Positions 52,429-57,066 of a stretch of DNA of 64,000 bases are shown piece after piece. The stretch covers positions 64,001 through 128,000 of the forward strand of contig JACQIB010000001.1 in assembly GCA_016198755.1 (NCBI GenBank), read 5' to 3'. The notes below the pieces were generated by a model. The model worked only from the letters and a program-made list of their open reading frames with translations. It had not been told where the DNA came from and did not search any database. The first letter of the stretch is position 1, and every line of letters begins with the position of its first letter. Origin of the DNA: Candidatus Aenigmatarchaeota archaeon (lineage in GTDB: Archaea > Aenigmatarchaeota > Aenigmatarchaeia > Aenigmatarchaeales > JACQIB01). The translations under genes were made by a program, and so were the position numbers.

Positions 52429-53370
52429 ATGGTTTACTTAGAAAATATCGAAAGGGGAGGCAAGACCTATTACTATATTACTAAGAATATTAGAGTCGGT
52501 GATAAAAAATGGAAGAAAATAAGAAAGTATATAGGCAATAAGCCTCCCTCAAAGGAACAGACAAAAAAAGCGGTTGGAGAGATTGAAAAAGAGGCGTTAA
52601 AAAAAGGCTTCATGAAGCCGGCTTCTAAATATGTTTATTTGAGCAACGAGGAAGCAGAGAAGCTGCAGGATTTGAAAGAGGTTTTTAACAAATGGTACGG
52701 AAAACTGAGTGCCATAGAGATAAAAAAATATGAAGATGACTTTGTTGTAAGATTTACGTATAACTCAAATGCTATTGAAGGAAACCGTTTAAGCCTTCGT
52801 GAAACAAGCATGATTTTAACAGAGAACATAATACCTGCTGGTGCCACTCCCAATGATTACAATGAAGCCATAAACTCAAAGGATTGTTACGAATTCATGA
52901 AAGTATATAGTGGAGAGTTTAATCAGAAATTTTTACTGAAAATCCACGAATTGCTTACAAAGAACACTAACTGCAAAATTATAGGCAATTATAGGGATCA
53001 TGAAGTCAGGATTTCCGGCTCTGACTGGGTTCCTCCTGCTCATGAAAAGATTAGAGAAGAGATGAGAAAAGTTTTCCAGTGGTACTATTTTGCCAGAAAG
53101 AAACTGCATCCTGCTGAATTGGGCGCTATTTTGCACAATAAATTAGTAAGAATCCACCCATTTGCTGATGGTAATGGCAGAACATCAAGAGTTATAATGA
53201 ACTGGATACTGATGAAGAATAAATTTCCAGTGTTTTATGTAGAACTACGAGATAAAATCAAATATTATGAAGCTGTTGAAGAAGGAGATAAAGGCAATGA
53301 CAAAGCAATAGTACATTATATTGCAAAAGTGCTGATGGAACAGTATACGTTTAAGTCAAATGGAAGATAG
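52429..53370 (+). CDS. Fic-family protein
   Basis: SNAIEGN inhibitory motif, HPFADGNGRTSR. Confidence 0.93.
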   Translation: MVYLENIERGGKTYYYITKNIRVGDKKWKKIRKYIGNKPPSKEQTKKAVGEIEKEALKKGFMKPASKYVYLSNEEAEKLQDLKEVFNKWYGKLSAIEIKKYEDDFVVRFTYNSNAIEGNRLSLRETSMILTENIIPAGATPNDYNEAINSKDCYEFMKVYSGEFNQKFLLKIHELLTKNTNCKIIGNYRDHEVRISGSDWVPPAHEKIREEMRKVFQWYYFARKKLHPAELGAILHNKLVRIHPFADGNGRTSRVIMNWILMKNKFPVFYVELRDKIKYYEAVEEGDKGNDKAIVHYIAKVLMEQYTFKSNGR

Positions 53371-53572
53371 TTCAGCGAGAAAAATGAAATCACCCACAAA
53401 AATACGGCATTATAGAATCAGGCCGCGCAGAAAGGCATAGAGACCATATGGGTTTATAAAGGCTGCTTTCCCAGTATAGGGAAGTGAGGTAGAGAGTAGT
53501 TTTGATTTCTATATGAGTTTCAAATATAACATACTTCTCGAATGAGAAAATTTAAAATAGGGGGTGAAAATA

Positions 53573-53719
53573 ATGCCATTCAATCGCGACTTTGGTCCAA
53601 GGGAAATGCACAAAGCAGTTTGTTCAGAGTGCAAGAAGGATACTGAGGTTCCTTTCAAGCCATCTGGTGACAGACCTGTTTATTGCAAGGATTGTTTCCA
53701 GAAGCACAAGAAATTCTAA
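53573..53719 (+). CDS. CxxC-x17-CxxC small zinc-finger protein
   Basis: Hand-translated PREMHKAVCSEC..EVPFKP..DRPVYCKDC; GGGGGTGA RBS. Confidence 0.85.
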   Translation: MPFNRDFGPREMHKAVCSECKKDTEVPFKPSGDRPVYCKDCFQKHKKF

Positions 53720-53756: not shown

Positions 53757-54815
53757 ATGGGCTTTAGTTTTTATATGCCCAGCCAATTAATTAATATTAA
53801 GCAAAGTAATCATATTATTATGATTAACATTGATTTTTTGCCAGATTCACCCAAAATACCCTTCAAAAATTACCTTGAAGATATACAGATAAAAAGAAAG
53901 CGTGGGAGTGATTCTATAAGATTTTATAATGTAAGAGATTATTTTTTAAATCTTATAAATAAGAGCGGAATAAAAAGAAGAAAAATATACGAAATGCTAG
54001 ATGTAAATAGGACTACATTCAATAATTGGATAGGTAAATCTAAAAAAGATGTCGGCATACCTATACAATATGCTCTAACATTGCTACAAATGTTTGGTAT
54101 GGGAAAGGATGATATATTATTTAAAAATGTTAATATTTACTACGGTTGTACAAATTCTAATAAATATAAATTGCCAACGGATATGACGCCTAAGCTAGCC
54201 TATCTAATAGGACAAATAATGGGTGACGGCCACTTATCAAATCCAAAAGATCTTATATCAAACGGATCTTTATATAATGCAGAGATAAGAATTACGAAGG
54301 GTGAAATAAAACAACTCAGATTGTTGACATCTATATTTTATGATATTTTTCATTATAAACCACCTATTTTCAGGGAAAAATCGTTTTATAGACTTGTAGC
54401 GCGATCAAAAGTTATTCACAGATTTTTGCATATCGTATGCGCCATACCAAGCGGTAATAAGAAAAACAAAACCTATATACCAGATATGATAATTAAAAAA
54501 GATGATTTTATAAAATGTTTTATTGGAGGATTTTTTGATTCTGATGGTTGCATAGTAGTTAAAAATAAAAATATTCGTGTGATTTCAATGAAACAGCATA
54601 ATATAAAAATCCTTCTCGATATCAAACATCAGCTTAAAAAATTTGGTATAAATATATCTGGCATATACAAAGATAGAGGAGTAAGAAACGGAACATCTAC
54701 ACTAAATTATGTTCTCAACATAGGTAGAGATGAAGAAAAACAAAAGTTTATAAAGATCATACCGTCTCTAAAGGTTATGGAGGTGTCGCGATTATATGGA
54801 AAATTTAGCATCTAA
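53757..54815 (+). CDS. free-standing two-motif LAGLIDADG homing endonuclease with N-terminal HTH-like segment (start may be 53820)
   Basis: LAYLIGQIMGDG and FIGGFFDSDG; no intein splicing termini; visibly AT-rich. Confidence 0.85.
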   Translation: MGFSFYMPSQLINIKQSNHIIMINIDFLPDSPKIPFKNYLEDIQIKRKRGSDSIRFYNVRDYFLNLINKSGIKRRKIYEMLDVNRTTFNNWIGKSKKDVGIPIQYALTLLQMFGMGKDDILFKNVNIYYGCTNSNKYKLPTDMTPKLAYLIGQIMGDGHLSNPKDLISNGSLYNAEIRITKGEIKQLRLLTSIFYDIFHYKPPIFREKSFYRLVARSKVIHRFLHIVCAIPSGNKKNKTYIPDMIIKKDDFIKCFIGGFFDSDGCIVVKNKNIRVISMKQHNIKILLDIKHQLKKFGINISGIYKDRGVRNGTSTLNYVLNIGRDEEKQKFIKIIPSLKVMEVSRLYGKFSI

Positions 54816-55507
54816 AGGTATACACATAGCTATCATCCCGGACGGAAAATAAGGCCGGAAACCGGAGATGGGCTGAGAAAAGGGGGAAGCCCCGCTGGTG
54901 GGGCCATATACATGGGGCAAAGAAGCTGGAAGATGTATCTTCATGGTGTGCAGATCACCCTGAAATAAAAACAGTTTCAGTTTATGCGCTTTCAACTGAA
55001 AATCTTGGCAGGGACTCCGCAGAATTGAATAAGCTTTGGACAATCTATAAAGATGAGTTTGGAAAACTGATGAAAGATAAAAGTACAAAGAAAAACCAGC
55101 TTCGGGTAAATATAGTAGGAAACACAAATGCATGGAGAGCTGATGTAAAACAGGCTGCAAAGGATGTAATGAACACAACAAAGCAGTATACTAACAGGGT
55201 TTTAAACATAATGCTTGCCTATGGCAGCAAGTTCGAGATTGTAGAGGCAGCCCGTTCAACCTTTAATAAAGGGGTTAAAATAGTGCCTTCCGTGGAAAAG
55301 CTTTTCAATCAATTCCTTTTGATTCCAGAGCCAGTTGATTTGGTTATAAGAACAGGAGGGCAGAGAAGGCTTTCCAACTTTTTGCTATGGCAGGCTGCTT
55401 ATGCAGAACTTTACTTTACAGATACTCTCTGGCCAGATTTATCAAGGAAAGAGTTTGAAAAAATCCTGCGCTGGTATACTGGCCAGAAGAAAAAGTTCGG
55501 CCTCTAA
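54796..55507 (+). CDS. uppS: undecaprenyl/polyprenyl diphosphate synthase interrupted by a 13-nt putative intron
   Basis: HIAIIPDG^NRRWA, YALSTEN, YGSK.E, DLVIRTGG.RRLSNFLLWQ..YAEL.F...WPD; GGAGGTG RBS. Confidence 0.85.
54848..54860 (+). other. putative 13-nt BHB-type mRNA intron
   Basis: AATAAGGCCGGAA; removal restores frame and the DGN motif; relaxed BHB fold. Confidence 0.65.
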
Positions 55508-57066
55508 ATTCCTCTCAGTTTCTCTGCAATTTTATCTTTTCCTAATGCAAGTATAAGTGTTGAGAGCTTTGGTCCGGCTTCCTTTCCTGTTATTGACATG
55601 TAAGCTGAGCGGAAAAACTCCCTCGGGTTTCCGCTTTCTTTAGAAAGCTCAAAAATCCTGTTTTGTAATTTTTCTTCAGTCCAGTCTTTCCCAAGTTCTG
55701 AGGCAAGCTTCTGTAGAAAAGCTTTTTGGTTCTCAGGAACAGAAGCAACTTCAACCTCCCCACCCGTATCTTTAATCCATTCTATAACCCTTCCAATTCT
55801 CTCTTCCAGAACTTTTTTATTTCCTCCTATATGTCCGGTTTTTTCCATTTCTTTCCAGACAACCGAAAACTCTGGAACAGGTCTCGCAATATTTATTATA
55901 GTGCTGTATTGTACAATAGGCTGGAATTTTTTCGGGGGTTTTAGGAAGTGGATAAATTCAAACAGCCTGCGTGCATGGGCTAAATCAGTTTTGTTTTCAA
56001 TTAATTTTTTCCCAAAATATATGCCTGCAAGCTCGTCTACCTCTTCCTCATAAGCAGGTATAGCATCCAGATCTATTACCCTGCTCTTTCCAAGTTTTTT
56101 CAGATAAACAAGCTTCATACTCTCTGGGCTTGCATACTTTAACCATAGCTGTGGTGTGAAAACATTTCCGGAACTCTTTGAAATCTTCTCTCCTCCCCTC
56201 TCAGTAAATAATTCATAGAAAGAATGTACTGGAGGTTCCCACTGCAAAATTTCCTTGCAAATAGCATCATTTACTCTTACAGAATCTGATATATCCTTCC
56301 CATAAGCCTCATAATTTATTTTCAGAGCCCTCCAGCGTGCTGCAAAATCCACTTTCCATGCCAGCTTCCCTTCCCTTATCCCTTCAGTTCCCTCAAATCC
56401 ACACCCCTTTACTAAAATCTTTTTTCCTGTTCCGGAATTTTTACCTTCATATTCAACATCACACTTGTAAGTTACTTTTTTACCATCAAATGAAACTGCG
56501 CGCGTTGTGCAGACATTTCCGCATTGCGAACAGATAGGAAGGAATGGCAATTGTAACTCAAACTTTTCCTGTCCGGTTAATTTTTTTATTATTTCCCCCG
56601 CCATTTTCCAGTTTTTAAGTATATCCACAATTTCTTTATCCAAAGTTCCTTTAGCGTACTCTTTATCAGCACTGCGGAAAACAAAATCAATTCCAAGTTT
56701 TTCATAAGCATCCATTAACAGCGAGCTCATATGCTCAGCATAGCTTTTATGGCAGCCAAATGGATCCGGTATATGTGAAACAGGTATTCCAATTTCTTTC
56801 TCGAGTATATCAGGGAAGCCCGAAGGTACTTTTCTCAATCCATCCCTGTCATCTGAAAAAGCAATGAATTCAGACTTTGCACCCCTTTCCTTAAGTGCCA
56901 AGTGTACAACAAAACTTCTGACACCATCCCCAACAGAGCCTATATGCGGAATGCCAGAGGCTCCTATACCCATCTCTGTTCTGTAAGACTTTACTCTCTT
57001 TAACTTCTCTTCCTTCTCAATTATTTCTTCTGCAGCTTTATCAGCCCAAAATATGTTATCTCCCAT
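55504..57066 (-). CDS. lysS: lysyl-tRNA synthetase, class I
   Basis: FWAD, ASGIPHIG, DDRDGLRKVP, GKLAWKVDF..RW, KISKSSGN. Confidence 0.95.
   Translation of the reverse strand: MGDNIFWADKAAEEIIEKEEKLKRVKSYRTEMGIGASGIPHIGSVGDGVRSFVVHLALKERGAKSEFIAFSDDRDGLRKVPSGFPDILEKEIGIPVSHIPDPFGCHKSYAEHMSSLLMDAYEKLGIDFVFRSADKEYAKGTLDKEIVDILKNWKMAGEIIKKLTGQEKFELQLPFLPICSQCGNVCTTRAVSFDGKKVTYKCDVEYEGKNSGTGKKILVKGCGFEGTEGIREGKLAWKVDFAARWRALKINYEAYGKDISDSVRVNDAICKEILQWEPPVHSFYELFTERGGEKISKSSGNVFTPQLWLKYASPESMKLVYLKKLGKSRVIDLDAIPAYEEEVDELAGIYFGKKLIENKTDLAHARRLFEFIHFLKPPKKFQPIVQYSTIINIARPVPEFSVVWKEMEKTGHIGGNKKVLEERIGRVIEWIKDTGGEVEVASVPENQKAFLQKLASELGKDWTEEKLQNRIFELSKESGNPREFFRSAYMSITGKEAGPKLSTLILALGKDKIAEKLRGI

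Follow-up and report, generated by a model that had tools for sequence, protein, structure and literature searches.

A free-standing LAGLIDADG endonuclease gene and a 13-nucleotide putative bulge-helix-bulge intron at the uppS locus of an Aenigmatarchaeota archaeon: a candidate collaborative-homing pair

A 64,000-nucleotide (nt) stretch of a Candidatus Aenigmatarchaeota genome (assembly GCA_016198755.1, contig JACQIB010000001.1, positions 64,001 to 128,000; the whole stretch is referred to below as the window, and coordinates are given within it) carries a free-standing gene for a homing endonuclease of the LAGLIDADG family directly upstream of uppS, the coding sequence of which is broken by 13 nt that are very likely a bulge-helix-bulge (BHB) intron. 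The same kind of arrangement was found at other uppS loci of DPANN archaea, and there the presence of an upstream nuclease implied the presence of an intron without exception, for four types of nuclease (T1 to T4; the window nuclease is of type T1) and three intron sites; the reverse does not hold. The two elements may form a pair comparable to the collaborative homing systems of phages, in which a nuclease gene lies beside, rather than within, the intron that it mobilizes. The nuclease gene, both uppS exons, the intron, and the motifs described for them lie on the plus strand of the window.

The uppS frame opens at ATG 54796 and halts at an in-frame TAA (54850-54852) after 17 codons, and the remainder of the gene is read in the +1 frame through 55507. 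Deleting positions 54848-54860 joins exon 1 (54796..54847; 17 codons plus 1 nt, with its junction placed by BHB geometry) to exon 2 (54861..55507, stop codon at 55505-55507) and restores the catalytic motif Asp-Gly-Asn-Arg-Arg-Trp as it occurs in intact relatives. The 13 nt (54848..54860), which include the TAA, interrupt the Asn codon of this motif in phase 1, a placement that rests on the sequence and the BHB geometry. Exon 2 encodes the body of a cis-prenyltransferase and matches Pfam Prenyltransf (1.2e-61) over positions 6-219 of the 219-position profile, and the first part of the motif comes from exon 1. The gene is present as a single copy in this 0.89-Mb, 89%-complete genome (G000). In four DNA sequencing runs from one groundwater study, contigs carry the stretch with 0 differences; these are separate assemblies, and the study is possibly the source of the genome itself. 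No contig with an intron-less variant was present in those four runs, with the reservation that contigs drop rare variants; among the sequencing runs searched, no RNA run was found to carry the locus.

BHB motifs are defined by two 3-nt bulges with a 4-bp helix between them at the exon-intron boundaries, as given in the available part of PMC5829648. In the window, a relaxed motif of this kind (hBH form) is predicted at 54838..54865 from the minimum-free-energy fold and from the geometry shared with 20 other introns at the same site. Its outer helix pairs 54838-41 with 54862-65 (4/4 pairs), its central helix pairs 54842-45 with 54855-58 (three pairs plus A.G), and the bulges are AAA at 54846-48 and AAA at 54859-61, 3 nt each; a 6-nt loop (54849-54) is present, and the inner helix is absent. 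If each bulge were cut behind its second base, exactly 54848-54860 would be excised. An earlier, sequence-only reading of the window had remarked on pseudo-palindromic flanks around the insertion; these are real and constitute the outer helix of the minimum-free-energy fold. Taken singly, the fold counts against the intron, as its energy of -16.7 kcal/mol (z = -1.77) was equaled by 7 of 200 shuffled sequences. Because a single-sequence fold of this kind is not significant alone, weight was placed on comparative data.

At this same point in the Asn codon (phase 1; site B), 21 distinct introns of 13 to 63 nt were recovered from two DPANN lineages, and their interiors are unrelated. Fourteen are from the phylum of the window and from T1-bearing contigs (13-41 nt; the site-B copy of genome G123 is identical to that of G128 and was left out), and seven are from a second DPANN order (15-63 nt). 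Two 3-nt bulges spaced 4 nt apart are found in all 21, cuts after the second bulge base restore the motif in every case, and an inner hairpin is formed in most. Across the 14 introns of the first set, 98 of 112 helix cells pair. Pair 2 of the central helix, which joins the synonymous third base of the Asp codon to an intron base, is C-G in 8, U-A in 5, and U.G in 1, and pair 3 of the outer helix, which joins the third base of the Pro codon to the first base of the Arg codon, is G-C in 4, U-A in 5, and unpaired in 5. When the 3' strands were permuted among the 14 loci, 0 of 2000 permutations reached the observed pairing total. The second-order set behaves similarly, with an outer helix of 4/4 pairs in all seven introns and a central helix of 4/4 pairs in six of seven. 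Since 21 introns at one site share BHB geometry with covariation, the single-copy uppS is otherwise intact, and the host encodes EndA and RtcB, we are highly confident that a BHB intron removed by splicing accounts for the 13 nt, as the sequence-only reading had supposed.

Introns were also recognized at two other sites in the gene: site A, in an Ile codon 11 nt upstream of site B (genomes G023, G265, G267, and G268), and site C, about 30 codons downstream of site B (G125, G123, G128, and G135). The uppS genes of G123, G128, and G135 carry two introns each, at B and C (loci L087 and L088, from G128 and G123, oriented 2560-2780; L091, from G135, oriented 2590-2790). G125 (L067), which belongs to the same genus as the double-intron genomes, has an intron at site C only and no nuclease. 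Junctions at sites A and C were drawn by hand on the sequence, and the four site-A and four site-C introns restore the frame; for G023, the junction ranked first automatically was wrong, and the third-ranked, 31-nt solution restores the motif. A structure-only BHB scan of G000 for frame-merging motifs returned about 69,000 candidates, the same as three shifted-register controls, and thus provided no discrimination.

The host genome encodes both enzymes expected for BHB splicing. Two EndA genes stand in tandem (G000 C1:37748-38807, with the single ORFs at C1:37748-38284 and C1:38286-38807; L115 1462-2521, minus strand) and encode proteins of 178 and 173 amino acids (aa), each with N and C domains; by eye, the second lacks the catalytic His. 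This composition suggests that the pair forms an alpha/beta heterotetramer that would cut relaxed BHB motifs, an ability described for alpha/beta-type EndA in the accessible text of PMC5829648. RtcB is present with a match of 1e-141, and its gene (G000 C5:42797-45628) forms an open frame of 1010 aa that contains an in-frame insertion of about 1.4 kb, an arrangement that resembles an intein.

The nuclease gene occupies 53757..54815 as an open reading frame (ORF) of 352 aa, although its true start is likely ATG 53820, as the start codon of the orthologue in G005 aligns with Met22. Of its two domains, Pfam LAGLIDADG_3 matches only the second (aa 252-335; E = 4.9e-12). Two LAGLIDADG motifs with acidic residues were read from the sequence: the first, with Gly-Asp-Gly, at 54195..54236 (G135, D136, and G137), and the second, inside the Pfam match, at 54507..54554 (D240, D242, and G243). 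These residues, which include the acidic residues of both motifs, are invariant in 6/6 T1 proteins. The protein consists of a helix-turn-helix (HTH)-like N-terminal region, with the first ~110 residues helical, followed by a two-domain core. An AlphaFold2 model built from six orthologues (pLDDT, 82; pTM, 0.85) and its Foldseek matches contain the alpha-beta-beta-alpha-beta-beta-alpha fold twice, as in single-chain two-domain LAGLIDADG enzymes. Foldseek matched the model to the TliVMA intein endonuclease (4.7e-12), PI-PfuI (3.4e-10), I-Tsp061I (1.4e-8), and I-DmoI (2.3e-7); TM scores by target were 0.77-0.79 for I-Tsp061I, I-DmoI (0.77), and intein endonuclease domains, and a profile search of PDB sequences also returned PI-PfuI (6.7e-6). 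The ORFs of the other T1 members are intact in 5/5. Given the I-DmoI/PI-PfuI fold, the invariant acidic residues, and the intact state of the other T1 ORFs, the T1 nuclease looks like an active enzyme.

Several observations establish that the gene is free-standing: it has its own frame and its own stop, it lies outside any intein frame or long intron, T1 occurrence is patchy, and a filled/empty pair of loci was identified (G026 and G028, described below). Its 3' end overlaps the uppS start by 20 nt, a Shine-Dalgarno-like GGAGGTG for uppS (54778..54784, 11 nt 5' of ATG 54796) lies within it, and 32 nt separate its stop codon (54813-54815) from the 13-nt insertion. The sequence-only reading had described a two-motif LAGLIDADG ORF outside any intein or intron, on which the ORF list, motifs, and Pfam agree, and the overlap, ribosome-binding site, and ~32-nt spacing that it listed can all be read directly from the sequence.

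Orthologues of the window nuclease with 45-51% identity were found in G005 (same family), in two metagenome-assembled genomes of another lineage (L053 and L054), and on two metagenome contigs (L057 and L058). With the window included, all six T1 genes immediately precede uppS and either overlap its start or abut it, and the adjacent uppS has a site-B intron in 6/6 (13, 23, 33, 40, 41, and 35 nt). Type T2 was found in G046, G108, and G026, upstream of uppS genes with site-B introns; its members match one another at E~1e-100, and LAGLIDADG_3 matches G046 at 7e-7 and G026 weakly, with no match in G108. A T2 search of the phylum added G065, where a stop-riddled nuclease gene precedes a uppS with a 20-nt site-B intron, which brings T2 to 4/4. 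This G065 gene (L077/L084, G065:C8:242828-243714) contains eight stop codons beside an intact intron-bearing uppS, which looks like nuclease decay after fixation. Type T3 lies upstream of uppS with a site-A intron in G267 and G268 (2/2; LAGLIDADG_3, ~1e-14). At these T3 loci (L062 1313-2044, minus strand; L063 2030-2917, plus strand), the nuclease ORF reads in frame through uppS exon 1 and stops inside the intron, so that unspliced RNA supplies the nuclease stop, and on spliced RNA the nuclease frame would continue into UppS. A T3 search of the phylum found free-standing HTH-LAGLIDADG genes of 30-45% identity in 25 more genomes; those of G123, G128, and G135 (T4) lie upstream of the double-intron uppS genes (3/3). 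T1 is a distant relative of T3 (phmmer, 1e-6 to 1e-10), and T2 matches neither; of the four types upstream of uppS, three are not close to one another.

The T2 genes of G046, G108, and G026 and the T3 genes came to light in a sample of uppS genes drawn without regard to nucleases (30 loci of relatives plus 13 loci flagged by short open frames). Over all loci, a nuclease upstream of uppS was found at 15 intron-bearing loci and at no intron-less locus, and uppS without an upstream nuclease was found at 12 intron-bearing and 40 intron-less loci. Every uppS-upstream LAGLIDADG gene found (15/15, one copy decayed) therefore adjoins an intron-bearing uppS, and each of these loci combines a free-standing nuclease with a neighboring gene whose intron contains no nuclease, the arrangement that characterizes collaborative homing. 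The 40 intron-less loci comprise 27 of the phylum and 13 of the second order, each with at least 1.3 kb of upstream sequence (L004 and L012 were left out because their upstream sequence was short). Among the 27, none of the 58 upstream ORFs of at least 110 aa had a phmmer match to T1-T3, and a Pfam tally of upstream ORFs contained no LAGLIDADG among families with at least two members, singletons being partly listed. In the second order, upstream ORFs of at least 120 aa at 20 loci (13 intron-less) gave no T1-T3 match. The association yielded p = 5e-8 by Fisher's test (15/0 versus 12/40) and 2.6e-5 when restricted to phylum loci that had been located by way of uppS only; both values overstate the link, as relatives are not independent, the nuclease served to find the T1 loci, and selection enriched the set in intron-bearing loci. 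Introns occur at a base rate of about 1 in 10 (4 of the 30 relatives' loci and at least 9 of 96 uppS-matching genomes of the second order).

These counts answer the check that the sequence-only reading had proposed, co-occurrence of nuclease and insertion across relatives, and the configuration that it named as contrary, a nuclease beside an intron-less uppS, appeared at none of the 40 intron-less loci. The pairing that it described stands in one direction only: a nuclease implies an intron, but the intron is much commoner than the nuclease. The upstream ORF of the intron-bearing G023 locus was considered as a further nuclease and rejected: an HTH_3 domain was identified in it, a strong homologue precedes an intron-less uppS, and it is counted as a host gene.

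Type T1 is rare, occurring in 2/371 genomes of the phylum and 2/101 of the other order. On a tree of 48 uppS sequences, built from the portion downstream of all introns, well-supported branches force at least three changes for T1, at least two for T2, and at least two for T4. Sisters without nuclease and without intron are found beside nuclease-bearing genomes (G005|G001, G026|G028, and G000|G010+G017), and nuclease and intron are jointly scattered over the tree, gained or lost together. Comparisons between lineages give 45-50% identity for T1 proteins and 33-38% for uppS, and comparisons within lineages give 51-57% and 62-78%, respectively. Because T1 identity is nearly equal between and within lineages, unlike that of uppS, these values point to horizontal transfer, in which the nuclease would have crossed between lineages long after their split. 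In the filled/empty pair, G026 and G028 have a common upstream block (85% identical) that ends at a TATA-like element. The uppS start follows ~25 nt past this element in G028, and ~980 nt comprising nuclease, exon 1, and intron occupy the position in G026, a layout that places the nuclease between the uppS promoter and uppS. The resumption of homology at the 3' splice site was considered as a mark of conversion and rejected, since exon 1 is too short for a blastn match of its own and the boundary is expected.

From these comparisons we infer how such a locus would operate, as a two-part selfish element on an essential gene. The nuclease gene, situated between the uppS promoter and start codon, is probably cotranscribed with uppS, and host EndA and RtcB would excise the 13-nt intron from the mRNA to give normal UppS. 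The nuclease would recognize the uninterrupted, conserved motif-coding DNA of intron-less uppS alleles, and the intron would split this target in the resident chromosome and so protect it. An intron-less allele, once cut, would be repaired from the nuclease-bearing allele, by which the intron would be copied together with the nuclease gene ~50 nt away across exon 1. Since the nuclease would recognize uninterrupted conserved uppS DNA, it would persist only where that stretch is split, settling only where the intron is already present. An intron may be favored over synonymous escape because the motif is catalytic and nearly invariant and an intron removed by the host costs little. The intron would be older or longer lived than the nuclease and would remain after nuclease decay; its survival is seen directly in the decayed G065 copy, and the abundance of orphan introns, together with the lack of sequence relationship among introns, argues that the introns often came first or outlive the nuclease. 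We judge it probable that the intron protects the resident allele from the nuclease, and we favor, with somewhat less assurance, the full reading of the locus as a collaborative-homing-like pair. We are less sure that the nuclease also spreads the intron, for which the jointly scattered gains argue.

A number of observations weigh against this reading. Twelve of the 27 intron-bearing uppS genes have no adjacent nuclease (G023, G265, G118, G292, G125, G408, G449, G429, G399, G389, G466, and G435), and the genes upstream of them are ordinary (M48 peptidase, PCMT, TraB, a DUF1246/DUF1297 protein, and GAPDH); the intron is thus independent of the nuclease and may often predate it. Two of these genomes, G408 and G449, belong to the second lineage and are close to nuclease-bearing G371, so the intron may be a vertically inherited host feature. 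The introns beside T1 nucleases are unrelated in sequence and give no sign that a single intron was transferred jointly with the nuclease. Signs of co-conversion are weak: exon 1 of G026 and G028 is identical at 33 of 52 positions (63%) versus 72-77% in exon 2, a signal drawn from only 52 nt, and L053 and G408 show no drop in exon 1 (22 of 25 identical by our own count). Spread by co-conversion, as the sequence-only reading had put it, accordingly finds agreement in the joint scatter on the uppS tree and little in exon 1 divergence. The census is partial, as 198 uppS matches lay outside the listing and selection by short open frames misses some introns, and nucleases near intron-less uppS were sought through T1-T3 profiles and the Pfam tally only. 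Finally, other free-standing LAGLIDADG genes have neighbors that look unbroken (a class II aminoacyl-tRNA synthetase gene in four genomes and a dehydrogenase-like ORF in G000), so an intron is not a general requirement for such nucleases.

Much of this evidence would also fit a history in which the introns confer immunity only: old, vertically inherited BHB introns would have allowed nucleases, spreading by intron-less homing or illegitimate insertion, to survive only at intron-bearing loci, without any spread of the intron by the nuclease. The excess of introns over nucleases, with its 12 nuclease-free loci, accords with such a history, as do the introns of G408 and G449 near G371, the lack of common sequence among T1-adjacent introns, and whole clades that share both the intron and the same upstream gene (the GAPDH group). 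It sits poorly with G026, which lies in an otherwise intron-less subclade of eight rows and would require several losses of both elements, with G005 versus G001, where the same applies, and with the patchiness of the intron among relatives whose uppS genes are 80-85% identical. We regard immunity without intron spread as unlikely, though it is the strongest of the alternatives. A domesticated LAGLIDADG protein, serving uppS as a WhiA-like regulator of expression or as a maturase-like splicing helper, appears improbable. WhiA is a transcription factor derived from a LAGLIDADG protein, and the HTH-like N-terminal region, the shared uppS promoter region, and Foldseek matches that include WhiA (rank 11) and LAGLIDADG maturases (ranks 43-44) would suit such a role. 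Both catalytic acidic residues are nevertheless invariant in 6/6, the gene is as rare as stated above, one copy is decaying while its uppS and intron stay intact, twelve intron-bearing uppS genes do without it, and the transfer signature suits a selfish gene; moreover, BHB splicing is known to require only EndA and a ligase.

The least probable alternative, to which we give very little credence, is that no intron exists and that the 13 nt reflect a uppS pseudogene, an assembly error, a repair scar, or a site of ribosomal hopping, with the nuclease a chance neighbor. The insertion does end in a 6-nt direct repeat of its flank, as a repair scar could give, the single-sequence fold is weak, and in the window the Gly codon GGA occurs both before the gap and at its end, as hopping needs. 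Set against these points are the sole uppS copy with a frame that is otherwise intact, the identity of four separate assemblies, and 21 independent insertions in the same codon that all display BHB geometry and covariation. Ribosomal hopping, which is known from T4 gene 60, was rejected because several loci, L054, G026, and G046 among them, have no matching landing codon before the Asn codon.

Other features were noted around the locus and among related nucleases. In the window, the nuclease is preceded by a gene of the Fic/DOC family (52429-53370) and by one for a small treble-clef zinc-finger protein (53564-53719). Downstream, a class I-type lysyl-tRNA synthetase-like ORF (55504-57066) is convergent with uppS, as is also the case in G005. 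The four class II aminoacyl-tRNA synthetase loci (G352, G350, G342, and G321; L089, L090, L093, and L094) have a T3-like gene tail to tail with an intact synthetase gene (tRNA-synt_2, D/K/N type), the 3' end of which encodes a conserved motif, and no intron was seen in it. The second free-standing HTH-LAGLIDADG ORF of the host genome (G000 C3:180836-181861; L145 763-1788; LAGLIDADG_3, 5.8e-8) is convergent with an unbroken-looking 322-aa dehydrogenase-like ORF; G000 has 12 LAGLIDADG_3 matches in all, three of them in long intein-like frames. In G110, G090, G276, and G319 (L092, L097, L098, and L100), T3-like nucleases lie directly upstream of NUDIX-like, small basic protein, and Orc1/Cdc6-like genes, names that come from sequence reading. 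Among the neighbors of 19 T3-like loci, nine other LAGLIDADG loci, and G000 C3:180836-181861, no further broken gene was recognized in a survey of ORF layout only, in which short introns were not sought.

If the intron and pair are as proposed, archaeal mRNA introns would extend beyond cbf5 to an essential DPANN enzyme gene and would be as short as 13 nt. Gene callers would take such micro-introns for frameshifts or pseudogenes, and some 'missing' or 'broken' genes of reduced genomes may then be intact; a set of archaeal mRNA introns would so far have gone unrecognized. The locus would represent the first collaborative homing outside phages and self-splicing introns, one that combines a LAGLIDADG enzyme with a wholly host-dependent intron; it would bear on the origin of nuclease-carrying introns (with the nuclease outside first and inside later) and on intron gain, and it would offer LAGLIDADG enzymes of natural origin whose 20-30 bp target can be predicted and lies in a gene that is universally conserved. 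A broader proposal, which we put forward tentatively and at present rather doubt, is that these loci constitute a previously unrecognized class of DPANN mobile elements, in which LAGLIDADG nucleases from several lineages have each joined with a micro-intron at one of three uppS sites, the micro-intron acting as an 'immunity patch' where synonymous escape is impossible. The micro-intron may even stem from misrepair of the break made by the nuclease, as the 13 nt in the window close with a direct repeat of the flank that builds the central helix unaided. BHB micro-introns disguised as 'frameshifts' would then be common in DPANN gene calls, and archaeal protein genes would acquire new introns through the action of homing nucleases.

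In a full-text literature search, neither introns in uppS nor a BHB intron paired with a free-standing nuclease was found described, in line with the sequence-only reading, which knew of no such case with BHB introns in archaeal protein genes; most subscription papers and supplements lay outside the coverage of this search. The closest functional parallel is F-CphI, encoded next to the group I intron in psbA of cyanophage S-PM2, for which collaborative homing was named (Zeng, Bonocora and Shub 2009; cited here from part of PMC6083498): the intron interrupts the F-CphI target and blocks self-cleavage, and the nuclease carries the intron into intron-less genomes. As at uppS, the free-standing nuclease gene there adjoins a gene whose intron has no nuclease. 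That system consists of a self-splicing group I intron and an Endo VII family enzyme in a phage, with cleavage and immunity tested, whereas the uppS pair comprises a 13-63 nt, putatively host-spliced BHB intron and a LAGLIDADG enzyme in an essential gene of an archaeal chromosome and is predicted from sequence. Phage T4 offers related cases in the trans-homing of mobE and I-TevIII in nrdB and the intron-less homing of seg and mob genes (sections of PMC2790892 and PMC2988022), where a free-standing nuclease between conserved genes cuts its conserved neighbor in nuclease-less genomes and moves itself with its flanks, including an intron; as described in those sections, these are phage HNH or GIY-YIG enzymes associated with group I introns.

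Among archaea, rRNA BHB introns that encode LAGLIDADG nucleases, such as I-DmoI and I-Tsp061I, are textbook examples and have the nuclease fold, the kind of intron, and the host splicing machinery in common with the present locus. Their nucleases lie inside a long rRNA intron, unlike the gene described here, which precedes the start codon of a protein gene with an intron too short to encode anything. For protein genes, the precedent is the cbf5 pre-mRNA intron of Crenarchaeota, a BHB intron cut by the tRNA-splicing endonuclease and gained and lost among relatives according to the part of PMC2738675 consulted; it is the sole pre-mRNA BHB case cited in the available portions of PMC5829648 and PMC12397907. 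The uppS introns resemble it in residing in an archaeal protein gene, in their presumed dependence on the tRNA-splicing endonuclease, and in their gain and loss among relatives, and differ from it in the gene concerned, in the DPANN host, in the use of three sites in one gene, in lengths down to 13 nt, and in the associated nuclease gene. The logic of collaborative homing is thus known; novelty lies in the class of intron, the family of the nuclease, the domain of the host, and the gene that is targeted.

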